From: an uncultured delta proteobacterium
Lineage (GTDB): Bacteria > Desulfobacterota > Desulfomonilia > UBA1062
Reading direction: 5' to 3'
DNA length: 64,000 nt
Assembly (NCBI GenBank): GCA_963752595.1
Contig: CAVVYZ010000013.1
Location: 96,001-160,000 of the forward strand
Made by a program: the position numbers and the translations under genes
In this document: piece by piece, positions 9,294 through 21,993 of the stretch
Position numbering within the stretch: position 1 is the first letter of the stretch
Layout of the letters: each line of letters starts with the position of its first letter
Notes under the pieces: generated by a model
The model's database searches: none
What the model saw: only the letters and a program-made list of their open reading frames with translations
What the model was told of the DNA's origin: nothing

Positions 9294-9354
9294 GCCTAAC
9301 GCTAGGCATCAGCCGCGCGGCTATGCCGCGTCGGCCTGGATGCGCTGGTTAGGC
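9294..9354 (-). mobile_element. attC site
   Basis: GCCTAAC...GTTAGGC, 61-bp imperfect palindrome; contains the TAA stop of the 9349-10416 gene. Confidence 0.92.
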
Positions 9355-10416
9355 TTTTACTCGTCTGACTAAGGACCGAACCCATGACATAGCAGACTCA
9401 ATGGCCCAGTCAGTTTGAGGTTGTGTGAGCGTTGGCATTGGCTCTGATCCCGGGCCATGCCCAAGTGAGTTCCGAACCTTCCGAAAATAGTCTTTTAATA
9501 TCTCACCCTCCCACGGAGCGAGGAGGCTACCATTGTTCTTGCTCACTAGATTATCTATGTACGCGGCAGCGCCGGTTTCAGTTCCACGTGTCCAACCCTT
9601 TATGTCTGAAACGATTTTTATTGCGCTTTCAAGCGCCTTTGCTGCGAATATGGCTGGGTCTTTATCATTTGAATCTCGACGATCAAGCGCCTCCTTCATA
9701 TCGATGTCCACGTTCGCCCAAATCGGGTCAGCAACTAGCTCCCAAAAAGGCTTTGCGATGTTCTGCTCGATCGTCTGATCGTGGGAAACTTGAATAAAAC
9801 CGTTGTGATATGTCAAAGGTGCTCCGGCGCGGCGAAAGCGCTCGTTGAGTTCGGTAACTTGTTCACGAAACACGTTATTAATGGACGCATTCCAAGCTTT
9901 GGCTCCGTCCACTGCACTTCCCTGGACCCTGAAAGCTCTACTTGGAGTGAGATTGCGGAATGCCGCAACATCAAGTGTTTGGGGTGATTGTGCGTTAATT
10001 CTGGCGACTTCTTCCTCTCGTAAACGCATTGCGAGTTCGATGAAGCTGAGCCTATCTTTGATGTAACTGTCAGGATCTTGAAGTCCAAGGTGAGGTTTTG
10101 CTGTGACGAACTGCTCGCAAACATGGTCCCAGCCAAACCAACCTGAAATTGGGAACTCTTGCCCTAAGGCATTCTTTTGTGTGTATGAATAGTAGCGTTG
10201 AGCAAGCTCTTTGAGACCGAGTTCTCTAGCTAGCCTGTCGTGCAAACCCTTCCACTTAACTTTGTTTGATGCGTGTTCCTTGCCGTCAGAGTCATAGTAG
10301 GGGAATAGGTCCCTTGCGATAGCGATTGTTTGCGTTAAAAGACGCCCCTCGTGCTCTGTATAGGTGGACCAGATTGGGAACTTGAGATACCTATATGCAA
10401 ATATGTCTGTCAGCAT
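9349..10416 (-). CDS. AbiJ-like (NTD4-type) protein with C-terminal HEPN domain (cassette gene)
   Basis: N-terminus MLTDIFAYRY...LHDRLARELGLKEL; ELNERFRRAGAPLTYHNGFIQ; AAKALESAIKI; HEPN R-x4-H motif RNSLGH. Confidence 0.75.
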   Translation of the reverse strand: MLTDIFAYRYLKFPIWSTYTEHEGRLLTQTIAIARDLFPYYDSDGKEHASNKVKWKGLHDRLARELGLKELAQRYYSYTQKNALGQEFPISGWFGWDHVCEQFVTAKPHLGLQDPDSYIKDRLSFIELAMRLREEEVARINAQSPQTLDVAAFRNLTPSRAFRVQGSAVDGAKAWNASINNVFREQVTELNERFRRAGAPLTYHNGFIQVSHDQTIEQNIAKPFWELVADPIWANVDIDMKEALDRRDSNDKDPAIFAAKALESAIKIVSDIKGWTRGTETGAAAYIDNLVSKNNGSLLAPWEGEILKDYFRKVRNSLGHGPGSEPMPTLTQPQTDWAIESAMSWVRSLVRRVKA

Positions 10417-11649: not shown

Positions 11650-13380
11650 TCAGTTCCTTGTTTTGGATTGTGCCATCATCGTTTCCGTGATCGGGTGCTC
11701 TTCCGGCAGATGATCCGGCAGGGATTTCTCCACGAGCAGCGTGTCGTTGTTCTCTATCGGGAGCACGTTGAGCGTGTCGGCAAAGGATATCCAGTGGGGC
11801 AGGTTGAGCTTCTTGCCCTCCGGGTGGTTCCAGGTGCGGTACCAGAAGAGGTCGTTGACCGATTTCCTCTTCTCCATTGCCTGGCGCTCCGCGATCATGG
11901 CGTCCTGCTCGCGCTTGGCGCAGATCGAGATGACCGCCTGCATCTTGTCGCCCGGCTTGATGGCAGGGGCGAGGACGTCGGCAAATCCGACCGCGGTGCT
12001 CGTTACAAGCTGCTCTTCGCTGTCGAGGAGCTCGGTGGAATGGATCGGGCCGGTCATGCAGAAGGCGCCGTATTTCAGGTCGTCGCCCTCGGGGATGTCG
12101 GTCGTCCCGTCGAGGTGTATGGAGTTCAGGCCGCACTGGATCGCTTCGCCCACGGCATGCTCCACGACATCGATCGCCAGTTTGTACTTTTTCACCATTG
12201 CCATGTCGATGGCGAAGAATACCACCCTGTGGCCGTCCTCCCTGGGTTTGAGAACCTTCTTACCCATTTCGACGATGATCTTCGCATACTGCTTGTAGGT
12301 CTCGAAATCGCAGGCGCTGAACCTGGGGTCTTTCTTGTTTATTTCAAACGCATCGAGCACCTCGATGAATGCCTTGTCCATGCCTCTCTTGGCGCGGTTT
12401 CTCATGAGAGAAAGGATCAGCTTGCCCTTGGGCGTGGTGCCGTCCATGATGTGGAGCTTGACTGCCTCGCGGACGCCCAGCCTGCTGAAGGTGTAGTTGC
12501 AGCTGCCCACGAAGTTGTCGATGACCCTGTCCGGAACCGTCAGGCTGAAATCGGCATTCCGGCGCTCGCTCTTGCGCTCGATGAGCTTGGCGCCTGCAAC
12601 GGCCATCATCTGGGGGTCGAAGGATGCCCTGTCCTCGATCTGCTTGAATCCGAGCTGGACGATGGTCACGATCTTTCCGCCCTGGTCCATGCCCGGGAGC
12701 ATGACGAGGTTTTTCAGCATCTTGTAGCCCTCGCTGTTCAGGCCGTTCGCGAGCTCCTCGGACAGAGAGTGCCTGATCACGTTCATCCCGATGTTTCCGC
12801 CGAGCACTGCGCCGATCCCATTGATGAGGTTGTGCTCGAAGGTGCCCATGTCGAGGTTCTCCAGGCTGCGGACGCTGGGAGGGATGGGCTTCCGGCGTAA
12901 GCCGAGAATGTCCATGAAGTCTCCCTTGTAGCCCGTGTTTATCAAAACCACCGTTGCAAAGGCGTTTTCTGCAAACCTCTCGCATGCCTTGACCACCTTC
13001 ATTTTCGAGAAGGCTTCTTTGCATTCGGTGTTGAAGGTCCAGTCGAAGTACATGCCCTGCCAATGCTGGGAATAGGTTGCGCACGAGGCCTTCAGCCCGC
13101 ATGCCAGCACCTGGCCGAGCCTGTATTTGTTCGGCGTCTCCTTGATGTTGAACGGTGCGAAGTCCTTGCCCTTATAGAAGCTCGAGCGCCAGATGTGGCG
13201 GATGGCCTGGTTCTGCTTCTCCGTGATGGAGGTGGGGCAGATCAGGTAGGGTATCTCGCAGGTGCCGGGGTGGCGGGCGGGATACCATTGCGACCGGTGT
13301 ATCGCAGCGTTGCCCTCCCTGGCGATCTTCCTTCCGTCATTTTTCCCGTATACTCCGCTTTCGCCCTGTTTTTTAACCAT
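11650..13380 (-). CDS. Hypothetical 576-aa cytoplasmic protein, family not recognised
   Basis: Long ORF with host-like GC3 bias, strong RBS AAGGAGG and its own terminator. Confidence 0.88.
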   Translation of the reverse strand: MVKKQGESGVYGKNDGRKIAREGNAAIHRSQWYPARHPGTCEIPYLICPTSITEKQNQAIRHIWRSSFYKGKDFAPFNIKETPNKYRLGQVLACGLKASCATYSQHWQGMYFDWTFNTECKEAFSKMKVVKACERFAENAFATVVLINTGYKGDFMDILGLRRKPIPPSVRSLENLDMGTFEHNLINGIGAVLGGNIGMNVIRHSLSEELANGLNSEGYKMLKNLVMLPGMDQGGKIVTIVQLGFKQIEDRASFDPQMMAVAGAKLIERKSERRNADFSLTVPDRVIDNFVGSCNYTFSRLGVREAVKLHIMDGTTPKGKLILSLMRNRAKRGMDKAFIEVLDAFEINKKDPRFSACDFETYKQYAKIIVEMGKKVLKPREDGHRVVFFAIDMAMVKKYKLAIDVVEHAVGEAIQCGLNSIHLDGTTDIPEGDDLKYGAFCMTGPIHSTELLDSEEQLVTSTAVGFADVLAPAIKPGDKMQAVISICAKREQDAMIAERQAMEKRKSVNDLFWYRTWNHPEGKKLNLPHWISFADTLNVLPIENNDTLLVEKSLPDHLPEEHPITETMMAQSKTRN

Positions 13381-14511: not shown

Positions 14512-14525
14512 ACGGACTAGTCCGT
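14512..14525. promoter_or_regulatory. Putative TetR operator
   Basis: Perfect 14-bp palindrome ACGGACTAGTCCGT just upstream of the TetR gene. Confidence 0.65.
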
Positions 14526-14733: not shown

Positions 14734-14809
14734 AGCAGGGCTTTATTGAAAATTAATTCGGGATTAATCAGGGTAGTATTTACTCTGTAAGGCCTTATTA
14801 TTAAAACAC

Positions 14810-14912: not shown

Positions 14913-15275
14913 ATGAAGAGGATTTTCGGGACATTGCTGCTCATCGTTTTAATCGGCTGCGGCACTGTTGCCTATGCCGAGGATCTGGATGTTGACTGTG
15001 ATTGCAAGAAGGGCGGGCTGGGCCTTCCCATCGGGAAGTTCATCATCGGCATCGGCTTCAGCCAATTCAATGCAAAACCAGGATGCGACCAGAGCATCGG
15101 GGTGGGCATCGGCATTGGAAAAGAGACCCATCGCATCCAGCTGGGGGCCGGGTATAATCAGGGAGTCTTCGGGCTGGGCATAGGGTTCAAAGGCCCTGAA
15201 AAGGTAACGGTAATCGGACCGGTTATAGGCTATGACTATGGAGACTGCAGGCTGGTCTGGCCCTATGAAGAATAG
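14913..15275 (+). CDS. Small secreted Gly-rich protein
   Basis: RBS AGGAGG; signal peptide ending AYA; repeated IGIGF/VGIGIG/LGAGY/LGIGF/IGYDY strands; four Cys in the mature part. Confidence 0.8.
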   Translation: MKRIFGTLLLIVLIGCGTVAYAEDLDVDCDCKKGGLGLPIGKFIIGIGFSQFNAKPGCDQSIGVGIGIGKETHRIQLGAGYNQGVFGLGIGFKGPEKVTVIGPVIGYDYGDCRLVWPYEE

Positions 15276-15377: not shown

Positions 15378-16269
15378 ATGCATATTCGTAAGGTCCTGCT
15401 GCACGTTCTGCCCCTGGTGGTTTCGGTCAGCCTTACGGGAGGATGTGCCGCGAAGATCGCCAGAATGTCGGTCGACGGCATGAAGCCCATCATGGTGGAG
15501 ATGCGGGGCGCCACGAACAAGAACCGCGACTCGCAGCTGGTCATGGATGCGATGCCGGCAATGCTCATCCAGATGGACGGCTTCATAGGGGTATCGCCGG
15601 AAAACCGGTATCTCCTCACGAGCGCGGCAGAGGCCAACATGGGGTATGCATTTTTCGCCGTGGAAGACAAGAACAAGGAACGCGCGAAGTTCCTCTATCT
15701 CAAGGCACGGGACTATGCATTGAGAAACCTCATGCTGAACAAGACCTTCAAGCAGGGCTTCGCGCAGGATGATATCGAGGTGTTTACCCGCGCCCTGAAG
15801 ACCGTCCACAAGAGGGACGTCGCGCCGCTGTTTATAGCGACGAACAGCTGGATGTCGTGGATCAACCTCGCGCATGCCGACAACCCGTCGGCCCTGAAAG
15901 ACCTTCCCAAGGTCGAAGCCATGATGGACCGCATCCTTGCAATCGATGATACATACTATTACGGCGGCGTCCATGCGCTGCTCGGTACGTACTACGTGCC
16001 CGGCCCGAGATGTTCGGCGGCCGGCCTGAAGAGGCGAAAGAGCAGTTTCAGGAGGCCTTCGAGATATCGGAGTCCAAGTACCTTCTGTGGCAGTTTCTCT
16101 ATGCAAGGTATTATGCGGTCCAGACCAAGGACAGGGGGCTTTTGTCGCCACCTTGAACAAGATCGTCTCCTCGCCGCCGGATATCCTGCCGGAAGATGCG
16201 TTCGCGAACGCGGCGGTAAAGAAGAAGGCGGCGGAACTGCTGCTTCACGTCGACGACTATTTCCAATAA
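15378..16269 (+). CDS. TRAP-T TatT-family lipoprotein (frameshifted)
   Basis: Lipobox LTGG-C; LPKVEAMMDRILAIDDTYYYGGVHALLGTYY; across frameshifts it continues MFGG..EEAKEQFQEAFEIS..KYLLWQFLYARYYAVQ...ANAAVKKKAAELLLHVDDYF. Confidence 0.85.
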
Positions 16270-16331
16270 ACCATGGCCGTATTCGCGATTCCGTCCTTCA
16301 GTGAATATGGCCGCAGCATGCACAGGAAGCC

Positions 16332-17294
16332 ATGAGACAGTACATCCTCAGGCGGATTCTCTACTCGTTTCTCATCCTTTTCTTCATATCGATCTTCATC
16401 TTTACGCTGGGAAGGGTGCTTCCCGGAGACCCGGTGCAGGCCGTGCTCATGACTTCCCGGATGGGCCCGGTGGATGCTGAGGTCATGGAGGATCTCAAAG
16501 CCCAGTTCGGCCTGGATAAGCCTCTGCCCGTGCAGTACCTCGTCTGGGCCGCGAACTTCATCCGGGGAGACTGGGGCATTTCCATAGCGAGCGGCGAGGA
16601 GGTGCTGCGCCATGTTCATGCACCGGCTGCCCATCACCCTGGAGCTTTTTTAGGCTCGGTGCTTCTGGGTCGTGCATCATCGGGTTCCCGTTCGGCATCA
16701 TCTCTGCGCTCAGGCGCAATTCACGGCTCGACGTCTCGCTGACGATCGGTGCCATCATCGGCATTTCCATCCCGGTGTTCTGGGAGGGGATCGTCATGAT
16801 CTATCTCTTTGCCGTGATGATTCACATCTTTCCGCCGTCGGGCTATGTGCCCTTTTCCGAGAGCATGAGCGGCAACCTCCTCTCCGTTGCCATGCCCACC
16901 TTCATCATGGGCACCCAGGGGGCAGGGCTCCTCTGCAGGTTTGTACGGTCGAGCCTGCTGGAGGTTCTGGGCCAGGACTATATCCGGACGGCATATGCCA
17001 AGGGCCTGCACAGGACAGGCGTGATCCTCCGGCATGCGGTGAAGCCTGCAATGATACCCGTGGTCACGATCGCCGGCCTTGCCTGGGGCTATGTGGTGGC
17101 CGGGTCTTTTCATCGTGGAGTACATGTTCGCCATCCCGGGCCTGGGGCGCATGGGCGTAAACGCGATCTTCGCAAACGATTTCCCGGTCATCCAGGCTAC
17201 CCTGGTCATGGTTGCGCTCAATATCCTGACCGTGAACCTCATGGTCGATCTCCTGTACGGATACATCGACCCGAGGGTGAGGATGCAACAATGA
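16332..17294 (+). CDS. dppB: Dpp/Opp-type ABC permease B (frameshifted)
   Basis: YILRRILYS...LPGDPV...GLDKPLPVQY; RSSLLEVLGQDYIRTAYAKGL; DLLYGYIDPRVR. Confidence 0.88.
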
Positions 17295-18200
17295 AGCCGG
17301 ATAGAGATTCTTCGACCGGGATGACGTGCCTGCTCCGCCTCCGACCCCCTCACAAGCTGTATTCCGTGCCCTGATACGACACAAGATAGCGCTCATAGGC
17401 ATGGCCATCATGCTGTCTTCTCATGCTTGTAGCGGTATTCGCGCCGCTCATCCTGCCCCGTACGACCCGAACGAGCAGGACCTCTACCATGTCCTGGAAG
17501 GCCCATCCCGGCAGCACCTGCTCGGTACTGACGACGTGGGCCGGGACCTGCTGTCGCGGGTCATCTACGGTTCGCGGGTAACCCTGATGATGGGCGCCGT
17601 CTCCACCCTGTTCTCGGGCCTTATCGGCGTGTTGCTCGGCCTGGTAGCGGGCTACAAGGGCGGGATCATCGATATGGTCATCATGCGCATCACCGACACC
17701 TTCATGTGCATGCCTGCCCTGGTCCTGATCCTTGCCATCATGGCCGCCATGGGCCCGGGCATGGAGAGTGTCATCCTCTCCATCACGATCCTTGCGTGGA
17801 CCGCGTTCGCGCGCATCGTGCGGGGCCAGGTGATGCTGGTGCGCGAGCTCCCCTATGTGGAGGCGGCCCATGCCATGGGCGCCTCGGGTTTCAGGATCAT
17901 ATTCCGGCACCTGCTGCCCAATGTCATGGCCCCGATCATCGTTACCACCACCATCGCGCTGGGCGGAAACATCATGCTGGAGAGCGCGGTGTCCTTCCTG
18001 GGCTAGGCGTCCAGCCGCCCACGTCGAGCTGGGGAAACGAGCTGCGGATCGGCTATTCCTACCTGGAGATCGTGCCGCTGTTTTCCATTGCGCCGGGATT
18101 GATGATAACCCTGGCGGTCCTGGCCTTCAACTTCATGGGCGACGGCCTCAGGGATGCCCTCGACCCGCGGCTCCGCGGAAATGACAGGATGATGAAATAA
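17291..18200 (+). CDS. dppC: Dpp/Opp-type ABC permease C (frameshifted)
   Basis: HLLGTDDVGRDLLSRVIYGSR; YVEAAHAMGAS..RIIFRHLLPN; FNFMGDGLRDALDPR. Confidence 0.88.
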
Positions 18201-18210
18201 GGTAAAAGAT

Positions 18211-19179
18211 ATGCTGCTCGATGTGCAGAAACCTGACCACGCATTTCCTTACCGATAACGGCATCGTCAAGGCCGTGGACGATGTCTCCTACGGTCTGGA
18301 TGAAGGAGAGACGTAGGCCATCGTGGGCGAGAGCGGCTGCGGCAAGACCGTGAGTGCCCTTTCGCTCCTGGGCTCATCCCGGACCCGCCGGGCAGGATCG
18401 TCAAGGGCGAGGTCCTGTTCGAGGGCAGGGACCTCCTGAAGACTGAGCGAAGACGAGATCTGCCGCATCCGGGGCAACCGGATCGCCATGATCTTCCAGG
18501 AACCCATGACCTCGCTCAACCCGGTGCTGACCATCGGAAGCCAGGTCATGGAGCCTCTGATGCTCCACAAGGGCATGAACAGGAAGGAGGCGCTCCGGGA
18601 ATGCATCGAGCTGCTGAAGATGGTGCGGATCCCCGATGCCGCGAGCCAGGGTCAACGCCTTTCCCCACCAGTTCAGCGGCGGCATGCGGCAGCGGGCCAT
18701 GATCTCCATGGGGCTGGCCTGCAACCCCAGGCTCATCATTGCCGATGAGCCCACCACGGCCCTGGACGTGACCATCCAGGCCGAGCTCCTGGAGCTCATG
18801 AAAGGATCTCACCCGGGACCACGGGACCGCCCTGATCATCATCACCCACAACCTGGGCATCGTGGCCCGGTATGCGGACAGGGTCATGTCATGTATGCCG
18901 GAAAGATCATCGAAAAGGCCGTGACCAGGGACCTCTACCGCGACTCCGCTGCACCCGTACACGGTCGGGCTCATGGAATCCGTGCCCCGGCTGGACCAGG
19001 ACATCAGGCAGAAGCTCATGCCCATCGAAGGTCAGCCCCCGGACCTCTGCCAGGCTGCCCCGGGCTGCGCCTTCCACCCGCGGTGCAGGCATGCGCTTGA
19101 CCGGTGCAGGGAAGAGGCCCCTGTCTCTGAAGGAAGATCGCCGAAAACCATGAGGCGGCGTGCTGGACTCGATGCATGA
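18211..19179 (+). CDS. dppD: Dpp/Opp-type ABC ATPase D (multiple frameshifts; end approximate)
   Basis: GESGCGKT Walker [47 protein letters not shown]. Confidence 0.85.
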
Positions 19180-20208
19180 CATGAACAGAGTGATGTCCTC
19201 ATCCGGGTCAAGACCTGAAAAAGCATTTCCCCATCTATCAGGGAGTGATCTTCAAGAAAAAGATCGGCGATCTCAAGGCCGTCGACGGCGTGAGCTTCAC
19301 ATCCACAGGGGGAGACCCTCGGGCTCGTGGGCGAGAGCGGCTGCGGCAAGACCACCACCGGCAGGACCATCCTGCAGCTCGAGCGACCGACCTGCGGAGA
19401 GGTACTGTTCGAGGGCACGGACATCACCGGGCTCGGGAAGTATGAGCCAGGAAGCTCAGGAAGCACATGCAGATCATCTACCAGGACCCCTTCGGTTCCC
19501 TGGACCCCCGGATGACCGTCGGCGACATCGTGGGCGAGCCCTTGATGATCCATCAACCTGGCAAGGGGAAGAGGCGAATACGCCGACCGGGTCGGAAGCC
19601 TGCTGGAGACGTGGGCCTGAACCCGGCCATGGCCGTCGAGGTATCCCCACGAGTTCAGCGGCGGTCAGCGGCAGCGCATCGGCATAGCCCGGGCGCTGGC
19701 GGTCAAGCCGGACTTCATCGTCTGCGACGAGCCGGTATCCGCCCTGGATGTGTCGATCCAGGCCCAGATCATCAACCTCCTGGAAGACCTGCAGGAAAGG
19801 TTCAGCCTCACCTACCTCTTCATCGCCCACGACCTGCCGTGGTCAGGCACATCAGCGACCGGATCGCCGTGATGTACCTGGGCGAGATCGTCGAGATCGC
19901 GGACCGGCGGCGACCTGTACCATAACCCGGCGGCACCCCTACACCCGGGCGCTGCTCTCGGCCGTGCCCATCCCGGACCCGGAAGTCGAGTACGACACGG
20001 GAGCACTGCATGATACAGGGGCGAGGTGCCGAGCCTGCTCAATATCCCGGACGCGTGCAGGTTCCATCCCCGCTGCCCGCTGGCGCAAACGATCTGCACG
20101 GGAGACCAAGCCCGTGCTGAAAGCACTGGATACAAGCGGGCACATGGTCGCCTGCCATTTCGGGATGATAAGACGCTGAAACGTTTCAAGGAGGTCATGA
20201 GGAACTGA
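19176..20208 (+). CDS. dppF: Dpp/Opp-type ABC ATPase F (multiple frameshifts; start approximate)
   Basis: [64 protein letters not shown]. Confidence 0.85.
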
Positions 20209-21993
20209 TGCGAAAAGATACTGTTCACGCTATCCTGCATCGCAAGCGGGGTGCTCATCTTCCTTGGGGATGATCGCCCTGCCGCCTGCCCGGGCGCAGG
20301 AAAATCCGAAGGCGAGACCGGGCTGGATGGAATGGGGCCCGAAATATTCTCCCGCAAAGCCTGTCAGGGGCGGGAACCTGCGCATAGCCTTTCCGGTATA
20401 CATCGGGGTGATGAACCCTAATCACTTTCCTGTCCTGGACTGGCCCACCATGAGTTATATGTACGAAAGGCTCATCCACTTCGACAGCAGCTACAGGCCG
20501 ACGCACCCTGGCTCGCCGAGTCGTGGAAATACATCGATGACGTTACCGTGGTCATGAAGCTAAAGAAGGGCGTCATGTTCCACGACGGGTCCCCGTTCAA
20601 TGCCCGGAGCCTCAAATACCAGATGGACTGGATCATGGACAGGGACAACATGGCCTGGACCAGAGCCTGGATCGAACCCCTGAAGTCGGTCGAAGTGGTG
20701 GACGAGTACACGGTCAGATGGCATTTCAAGAGGCCCTGGGGATCGTTCCTGGGGACCATGGCAAGCGTTCCCGGGTATGCCGTCTCGGCCAAAGCCCTTG
20801 AACGCGATGCCGCAAGAGCAAAGGCGAAAAGGATCGAGCGGGAGCTCGTCACTGCGCGGCGCAAGGCCAAGAATGGAAAAGACCCGGATAAGGCGGCCAA
20901 GGCGGCTCAGCTCACGGTCGACCTGGAGGCGCAGCTGAAGAAATACACGGAGCTTGCTAAGGGCGCCGGGCCGCTCGATATCAACCCGGTCGGCACCGGG
21001 CCGTATATGTTCGAATCTGCCAGCACGGATAATTACATACAATTGAAGCGCAACCCCGACTGGTGGTTCGGCAAGAGCATAGGGCATCCCGACATGCCGT
21101 ATTTCGACGGGATCCGGGTCTCGGTCATCCCGGATCCGTCCGTCCGGCTGGCAAACCTCAAGGCGGGCAAGCTCGATTTCATTCTGCTCGATGCCACCCA
21201 GTACCGGCTCGTGAAAAACGATCGGAACTTCAACTCCGGAGCCATGCCCATGAACTGGCTGGTGTTTCTCACCTTCAACCATGCGAAGGGGCCGTGCTCG
21301 GACATCAGGGTCCGTCAGGCCATCTCCCATGCCATAGACCGGAAGGCCCTGGTCATGGGGACCCAGTTCGGGCTCGGAAGGGTGTCGAGCTGCGTGTACC
21401 CCGACGACCACTGGGCACATAATCCGGACCTGAAGCCCGTGAGCTATGACCCCGGGCTGTCGAAGAAGCTTCTTGCCCAGGCCGGGTATGCGAACGGGCT
21501 CACCATAAAAGGCTTTACCCTCAATACACCCGAGGCCCAGGCCTTTGCAAAGGCCGTGATGGCCATGCTGGCAAAGGTCGGGATCACGTGGCAACCGGTC
21601 TTTCTGGGCATCACCGGGATGATCGAGCCTTTCCGGAAGCTGGACTTCGACGTGATCGGAAACCTCTACCCCTGGATTCAGGAGCCGGACCACGCCGCCA
21701 CGCTGCTCTACGATCCTGCCAGCCCCTTGAATAACGGCAGGAGCAATAACCCGAAGGCGTTAGCACTCATCAAAGAGGGAAGAACCACGGTGGACGAGGC
21801 AAAGAGGGCAAAGATCTACCATGAGCTTGAAAAGGTGCTTTACGGCAATTACGAAGATGCCTGGCTGTGGTGGCCGACGGCGGTCCTGGTCAGCAGCAAA
21901 AATGTCATGGGATACAATAAGGACATGCACCGGCAGTATGGGGAAGGCTATATTTTTTCGCATCCGCAGTGGTTCAGGGACGGGCATCCGTGA
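20208..21993 (+). CDS. Family-5 ABC substrate-binding protein (5' part frameshifted)
   Basis: KPVRGG.L; LKKGVMFHDGSPFNA; PVGTGPY; DIRVRQAISHAIDR. Confidence 0.9.

Follow-up and report, generated by a model that had tools for sequence, protein, structure and literature searches.

Why should a gene for a TatT-family lipoprotein, the T component of the tetratricopeptide repeat protein-associated tripartite ATP-independent periplasmic (TRAP) transporters (TPATs), head an operon for an ATP-binding cassette (ABC) transporter of the Dpp/Opp type? The question is posed by a window of 64,000 nucleotides (G000:C13:96001-160000) from the genome of an uncultured delta proteobacterium, which is 84% complete and in which an earlier note had placed tatT 62 bp ahead of dppB-C-D-F and a gene for a family-5 substrate-binding protein (SBP), without dctP/Q/M in the window. 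Our analysis makes it fairly probable that an ATP-driven Dpp/Opp-type importer operates here together with TatT, which would dock on a helical insert of the SBP and pass on a poorly soluble substrate.

The coordinates of the genes (Table 1) bear out the 62-bp spacing, and the Dpp/Opp/Nik-type set at the locus is complete, comprising two BPD_transp_1 permeases, two ATPases and one SBP_bac_5 protein. Pfam assigns dppB and dppC to BPD_transp_1, BPD_transp_1_N and OppC_N, and positions 20548-21990 to SBP_bac_5 (E 7e-66), although the start of the SBP lies near 20208 rather than 20548. The dppF piece of the window has no Pfam match; its intact orthologue in G004, a genome of the same genus, is OppF/DppF-like, and the G004 orthologue of dppD has its Walker A, signature, Walker B and H-loop motifs all intact. 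The NCBIfam scores shown lie below the curated cut-offs of the named Dpp, Opp, Nik and Gsi members, with the SBP far below that of DppA. The identity of TatT, for which the earlier note had proposed a Pfam check, is secured by three frame pieces that match TAtT (PF16811; E 2e-36, 3e-11 and 3e-6; 126, 43.5 and 27.2 bits against a cut-off of 26.5) and jointly span positions 2-263 of the 263 in the profile; the intact orthologues match the family as well. The lipobox reads LTGGC followed by Ala at +2, and G21 and C22 are almost invariant across 116 rows. By the rule established for E. coli, a non-Asp residue at +2 directs lipoproteins to the outer membrane, and TatT is therefore likely to be located there. 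Short gaps and overlapping stops and starts suggest that tatT, dppBCDF and the SBP gene are co-transcribed; in G036 the tatT stop overlaps the dppB start, and at L050 the two are 2 nt apart. Neither dctP/tatP nor dctQM lies in the operon with tatT. Indeed, matches to DctP and DctM across the genome are confined to contigs C1, C12 and C19, with none in the window part of C13, so that this claim also holds. The source genome has three tatT genes, namely that of the window, one on C12 in a full tatT-dctP-dctQ-dctM TPAT and one on C1 without a transporter neighbour.

The pairing had been expected to fall if the linkage were not conserved and TatT modelled or bound only with a DctP, but a survey of tatT neighbourhoods for family-5 SBPs without DctP recovers the order tatT-dppBCDF-SBP at 14 other loci, making 15 with the window (L065 and G365, 99.99% identical, are counted once) and including TatTs of as little as 43% identity. 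TatT is present in 25 of 61 close genomes, and the gene following it at 28 foreign loci is dctP at 21, dppB at 3 and neither at 4. A GTDB scan with three intact orthologues yielded seven loci, all seven with the order orf120-tatT-dppBCDF-SBP (the SBP being cut by the contig end in two), where orf120 is a small upstream gene not reported in the earlier reading. Starting from the SBP, a metagenome scan found tatT directly before dppB at 4 of 79 loci, with 43-47% TatT identity, and a broad TatT profile revealed no further clear TatT among these 79, many contigs being too short to tell. Matches to TatT are present in 96 of 401 genomes of the phylum, where the best 30 loci comprise 27 linked to dctP, 2 linked to dppB and 1 that is cut. 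From 351 genomes of the order of G450, 4 of the best 30 loci are linked to dppB, 3 of them new. The reciprocal SBP search of the same 351 genomes gave seven matches, four with tatT, two within the SBP clade without an adjacent tatT and one outside the clade. The homologues named come from Desulfomonilia and Desulfobacterales, and the host of the window is probably an anaerobe of the Desulfobacterota.

In the SBP tree, a single long-stemmed clade (Shimodaira-Hasegawa-like approximate likelihood ratio test, SH-aLRT, 100) unites the 13 tatT-linked SBPs and leaves 16 tatT-less SBP rows outside. Two tatT-less operons (G648:C89 and G562:C38) later fell inside this clade, which rules out a strict coupling of the clade to tatT, and tatT is present in 13 of the 15 operons of the clade with visible upstream DNA. 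The tatT-ABC system is thus rare and conserved but not obligatory, and TatT is an accessory, lost from certain operons of the SBP clade.

For the intact TatT-SBP pair of G004, complex prediction gives a score of 0.70, compared with 0.00 for the best of three controls, so that TatT does model with the SBP, as the earlier note had suggested examining. Among solved complexes, 116 of 157 attain such a mark, and among mismatched pairs 2 of 215, a rough guide only, own alignments having been used. The runs share at least 90% of their contacts, and the predicted local distance difference test (pLDDT) of the partners is at least 88. The tightest contacts are predicted between residues 179, 182, 183 and 186 within the SBP insert and residues 183, 186, 190, 201 and 225 of TatT, where acidic side chains of TatT pair with arginines of the insert. 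Looser contacts are formed by the 208-218 loop of TatT, as well as by residues 293-294 at its C-terminal end, with both lobes of the SBP. The model supports binding of TatT to the SBP, with the helical insert as the predicted docking site, and a pass owed to a known structure is less likely because TatP, the TatT partner whose structure is solved, comes from a different SBP family that lacks the insert.

The residues brought together in this model differ between ABC-linked and TRAP-linked systems. Asp183 and Glu225 of TatT had been marked as diagnostic of the clade before the complex result was read (L031 and L032 were left out of that residue analysis, and L032 also of later trees). Of the ABC-linked TatTs, 13 of 14 have Asp183 and none is basic at position 225, whereas 4 of 71 TRAP-linked ones have Asp183 and 67 are basic at 225 (counts without L047, a tatT-dctQ-dctM locus cut by the contig, and L181, which duplicates L026). 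In the SBP, Arg179 and Arg186 are present in 17 of 17 members of the clade, compared with 6 and 5, respectively, of 15 insert-bearing sisters, and position 182 is Val or Ile in 15 of 17 clade rows and charged in all 15 sisters (L056, identical to L057, being left out of the SBP counts). The window tatT keeps acidic equivalents of Asp183 (15927-15929) and Glu225 (16052-16054), and the window SBP keeps its interface residues. The change of charge at TatT positions 218 and 225 would argue, indirectly, against binding of the DctP type. An overlap between diagnostic and interface residues (3/7, p 0.016) was dropped as an independent test, the thresholds having been set after the interface was known.

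The SBP itself is modelled with a family-5 fold (pLDDT 94), for which the nearest structures are 17-24% identical with template modelling scores (TM-scores) of 0.65-0.76. An extra helical hairpin is predicted at residues 162-217 of the trimmed G004 chain; this insert is 46-68 residues long within the SBP clade, occurs in some tatT-less sisters too, the remainder lacking it, and has no counterpart in DppA-type SBPs. E. coli DppABCDF-type importers share with the system two permeases, two ATPases with intact motifs and the family-5 SBP fold, but the SBP encoded here comes last, carries the hairpin and lacks the arginine loop. In DppA, an arginine loop (R383) and D436 clamp the peptide ends (title of PDB 8z1z). 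The loop corresponds to a gap in the SBP alignment, and the Asp column, which is less certain, lies in or beside that gap; with the arginine loop missing, dipeptides are an unlikely cargo of this SBP. Several clade-specific SBP changes go towards aliphatic residues, and others go the opposite way. Beyond the clade, L069 and L073-L134 represent a wide, uncharacterised sister family of tatT-less family-5 SBPs, some of which have the helical insert; L069 holds two SBPs together with an acyl-CoA dehydrogenase that shares 61% identity with its cassette-linked counterpart.

The pairing of TatT with a family-5 ABC importer, which the earlier note did not know to be described, was likewise not found in the literature searched, although the neighbourhood analysis of Zhai 2023 and its supplements may list ABC neighbours. 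TatTs outside TRAP systems, by contrast, are already known in general: PMC11713862, in its accessible part, puts at about 25% the share of TatTs whose partners are not PQM, with BstC as its example. The closest comparison is the TPAT of Treponema pallidum (TatT Tp0956, TatP Tp0957 and TatQM Tp0958; PDB 3u64, 4di3 and 4di4), where TatT (E 2e-11 to 3u64) likewise heads a transporter operon and its C-terminal face meets the binding protein, as predicted here for an interface that includes the TatT C-terminal end. There, the TatT pore is aligned to the TatP cleft (PMC5812351, accessible part). The present system differs in that the partner is a family-5 SBP of about 600 amino acids with a cleavable-type signal rather than a DctP lipoprotein, an ATP-driven DppBCDF instead of an ion-driven DctQM forms the membrane part, the docking helix is an SBP insert, and an extra gene for a small beta-protein lies upstream. 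The TatT of Enhygromyxa salina in complex with palmitate (PDB 8g52) belongs to the same family (E 4e-13, the similarity spanning residues 177-285 only) and is described as part of TRAP-type fatty-acid transport (via the accessible text of PMC11713862); long-chain fatty acids are bound by two TatTs and sterols by BstC according to the same text.

The membrane part of BstABC of Methylococcus capsulatus is of the RND (resistance-nodulation-division) type. As at our locus, its TatT homologue, BstC, stands outside a TRAP operon and beside an SBP, but BstB is a phosphonate-type SBP (PF12974) in a putative sterol exporter, as far as the accessible part of PMC10942540 goes, whereas a full family-5 ABC importer is encoded here. 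No RND-type membrane protein, PF12974 SBP or sterol-synthesis neighbour was found at the locus. With no dctP/QM in the operon, the tatT-ABC system is not a TPAT, but likely works like one, as a conserved variant of TatT-assisted transport.

In the mechanism that we propose, cargo would enter across the outer membrane, perhaps through the orf120 product, and TatT, anchored in that membrane, would dock on the SBP hairpin and pass a poorly soluble substrate to the SBP for import by the DppBCDF-like complex. By analogy with Tp0956-Tp0957, hand-over of the ligand from TatT to the SBP is likely. Because the E. salina relative binds palmitate, we consider a fatty-acid-like or acyl-type substrate, for which we would give about even chances. 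At 5 of the 15 loci, the flanks hold same-strand genes for an acetoacetate-decarboxylase-family (ADC) protein and an acyl-CoA dehydrogenase; in G609 and G682 they directly follow the SBP, and a more distant ADC gene follows it in G648. Neither gene is present in the flanks seen of the window, G004 and seven other loci.

Several observations weigh against this partnership. The insert is found in tatT-less sister SBPs and hence predates it, which rules out an invention specific to TatT. The operons of G648:C89 and G562:C38 retain Arg179 and Arg186 without an adjacent tatT, and both TatTs of G562 are of the TRAP type. The three loci found last hold Asp183 in two cases, Glu225 in one (Gln in two) and Arg179 in two, with Arg186 in all three, and Asp183 is also present in 6 of 10 related TatTs without a transporter neighbour; no SBP of the cassette type was found in G782, G739 and G713, which are genomes with such TatTs. 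ABC-linked TatTs do not form an exclusive clade in a tree of 112 rows, where exclusivity is not rejected either (approximately unbiased test, p 0.31). Moreover, model and conservation are not independent, because the complex model saw alignments with the same conserved residues. The source genome has no match to the ADC gene and encodes a FadL-type channel, and orf120 was not found in G609 or G682, which have the cassette. Finally, a tatT-dctP locus is found in most of the cassette genomes checked, and TatT may thus use a DctP in trans.

This last point bears on an alternative in which tatT is merely co-located or co-regulated with the ABC genes and serves a DctP/TRAP system elsewhere, or acts alone as a lipid buffer. 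Full TPATs in the same genomes would agree with this, as would the two ABC operons without tatT and the close TatT relatives without a transporter neighbour. We nevertheless regard it as unlikely, given that the TPAT on C12 has its own tatT, that the basic residue 225 of most TRAP-linked TatTs is missing from ABC-linked ones, that the TatT-SBP model passes its controls and that gene order is kept even at 43% identity. Alternatively, TatT may bind the SBP as a tether or modulator, for example near the outer membrane, or the cargo may be aromatic, a cofactor or a metal chelate rather than a lipid. The best-resolved contacts do lie on the insert, away from the ligand site, family-5 SBPs bind very diverse ligands and the nearest structures are distant, most loci are without ADC and acyl-CoA dehydrogenase neighbours, and the ligands of the family are not uniform, being sterols for BstC and fatty acids for other TatTs. 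However, further contacts lie on both SBP lobes and at the C-terminal end of TatT, all characterised TatT-family proteins in the accessible parts of the literature examined bind lipids, and several of the clade-specific changes in the SBP, if not all, are towards aliphatic residues; we therefore consider a tether or a non-lipid cargo rather improbable. Export or recycling of envelope lipids, as proposed for BstABC, would draw on the precedent of BstC, a TatT homologue that belongs, with an SBP-like partner, to a putative system for sterol export. Dpp/Opp-type ABC systems that depend on an SBP are importers, and no RND or lipid-synthesis gene was found among the scanned neighbours, where catabolic genes are seen, which leaves export a very slight prospect.

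It is also conceivable that the operon is a decaying pseudogene cluster in the source organism, whatever its role in relatives. The window tatT has two apparent frameshifts, near 15999 and 16144, and the stretch from tatT into the 5' part of the SBP gene carries 48 non-triplet indels relative to the intact genes of G004, whereas the flanking orf576, tetR, orf120 and corC have none. Rather than decay, assembly errors are the most likely cause, as insertions exceed deletions (30 to 18), the ratio of nonsynonymous to synonymous change (pN/pS) relative to G004 is alike in broken (0.15-0.30) and intact genes (0.16-0.30), and polA on C12 (L010:1269-3186) is likewise split over several frames, pointing to patchy indel errors in this assembly. 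A decaying cluster thus seems highly improbable, and TatT-assisted import remains the reading that we favour. A separate irregularity is seen in the dppD copy of G032 (L040:9820-10650), which apparently lacks about 43 residues including Walker B, through either a real deletion or an assembly collapse.

The upstream gene orf120 belongs to the cassette. Among 11 genomic loci, it precedes an ABC-linked tatT at 9 and a TRAP-linked tatT at 1 (G235), and stands alone at 1 (G365); it is present in 4 of 401 genomes of the phylum and 2 of 351 of the order of G450. The 60 homologue clusters contain no Pfam domain, the protein matches no Pfam or NCBIfam family, and all Atlas matches fall below 0.8. The model (pLDDT 86) is a six-strand antiparallel meander with strands of 9-11 residues, in which 23 positions of the outward face are large hydrophobic residues in at least 75% of sequences, 13 positions of the inward face are Gly in at least 80%, and all four cysteines lie on the side of both termini. 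A Foldseek search gave no match at E 0.001, and structural comparison no Z of 5 or above (best Z 4.1, root-mean-square deviation 3.7 over 77 aligned residues; OmpW, Z 2.9). A search for a longer fused form, which is weak evidence, found none. The pattern would fit an outer-membrane array of strands that needs oligomerisation to close, a closed barrel calling for at least 8 strands, which we put forward as a candidate hypothesis, as no fold match was found. That orf120 provides an optional outer-membrane entry pore or an anchor for TatT is, from the model, a possibility that we place slightly below an even chance. A complete envelope chain for hydrophobic acids, with an orf120 oligomer as a glycine-lined outer-membrane pore, TatT beneath it docking its acidic face on the arginine-rich hairpin, and import by the ABC complex, seems doubtful. 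FadL-like channels have been proposed upstream of TatT (PMC8407342, accessible part). At L169:7090-11376 (G235:C13), orf120 lies ahead of a canonical tatT-dctP-dctQ-dctM, and G235 has no cassette-type SBP. A divergent lone homologue is found at L172:7222-7584 (G365:C66), near genes that, from their translations, we take to be a benzoyl-CoA-reductase-type cluster; the tatT-ABC cassette of G365 is without orf120.

Were the complete envelope chain real, TatT would serve the periplasm in general as a lipid adaptor exchangeable between TRAP and ABC transporters, and some TPAT systems, such as that of G235, would have in orf120 their missing outer-membrane partner. The system names one non-TRAP partner of TatT and offers a residue-level interface with intact genes in several genomes, thereby addressing the open question of how TatT is loaded and which partners it has outside TRAP operons. 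It also suggests that lipid-like cargo can be carried by family-5 ABC importers when a chaperone assists, and an unclassified protein family supplies a candidate for the outer-membrane partner of TatT. In anaerobic Desulfobacterota-like hosts, little is known of how fatty acids and similar compounds are taken up.

The phylogeny of TatT depends on sampling. In a tree of 42 rows, the first 11 ABC-linked TatTs grouped as a single clade (95/93), and this support for an exclusive clade was lost with 112 rows, where 14 ABC-linked TatTs fall within a 28-row group that contains no dctP-adjacent member and also holds 4 tatT-dctQ-dctM and 10 other loci. Four loci (L221, L227, L228 and L229; G713:C2, G609:C96, G562:C24 and G682:C110) have tatT directly followed by dctQ and dctM without dctP in the region fetched, and their TatTs form one clade (92/92) inside the group. 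Their genomes encode 4-6 DctP genes, and a similar locus is present at L171:6711-9459; TatT of such loci may feed DctQM directly or use DctP from elsewhere. TatT genes of this group also come first at L220, L224, L225, L226 and L236, in an operon that further encodes a Tat-signal-like aldo/keto reductase, DUF6599, DUF362 and a 4Fe-4S membrane protein. At L230, L231 and L232, TatTs acidic at both 183 and 225 are divergent from phaC, a gene for PHA synthase (Pfam-checked for L230), and no transporter lies close by. The C1 tatT (G000:C1:151537-152400, L009), beside what from its reading frame is presumably an IS200-like transposase gene, forms with L038 and L042-L046 a separate tatT clade without transporter neighbours across the family.

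Table 1. Features of the tatT-ABC cassette, in positions of the window.
Feature	Position	Strand	Evidence and remarks
AT-rich motif with AAATTAAT core, candidate regulator site	14743..14758	.	Upstream of orf120
orf120, secreted 120-aa protein of no known family	14913..15275	+	Signal-like start, four invariant Cys
tatT, TatT-family lipoprotein	15378 (ATG)..16269 (TAA)	+	PF16811, lipobox; PDB relatives 8g52 and 3u64
dppB-like permease, frameshifted in the assembly	16332..17294	+	BPD_transp_1-type Pfam match
dppC-like permease	17291..18200	+	Pfam match; probable start overlaps dppB stop (ATGA)
dppD-like ATPase	18211..19179	+	One piece matches ABC_tran
dppF-like ATPase	19172..20179 (ends approximate owing to indels)	+	G004 orthologue
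Family-5 SBP, cleavable-type signal peptide	20208..21993	+	PF00496
52-aa helical-hairpin insert of the SBP	20809..20964	+	Alignments, structure model
SBP docking helix, first of the insert (R179, V182, T183, R186; trimmed G004 numbering)	R179 at 20839, R186 at 20860		Predicted TatT site

The AAATTAAT core lies within 300 bp upstream of 6 of 10 orf120 loci, compared with a maximum of 3 of 10 in 2000 mononucleotide shuffles, a comparison uncorrected for the kinship of the loci, and scans for promoters and terminators gave nothing decisive. The genes tetR and orf576 adjoin the cassette in G000 and G004 only, for which reason they are not counted among its parts; more distant TetR matches occur at a few other loci. 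Downstream of tetR, orf576 (11650-13380, minus strand) encodes 576 amino acids with 85% identity in G004, no Pfam or NCBIfam match and no Atlas match above 0.8. An AbiJ N-terminal domain 4 protein, which Pfam assigns at 9349-10416 (minus strand), is a possible defence gene. Just upstream of the tetR start, a perfect 14-bp palindrome (14512-14525) is unique in the genome and kept in G004, and is likely the operator of that TetR.

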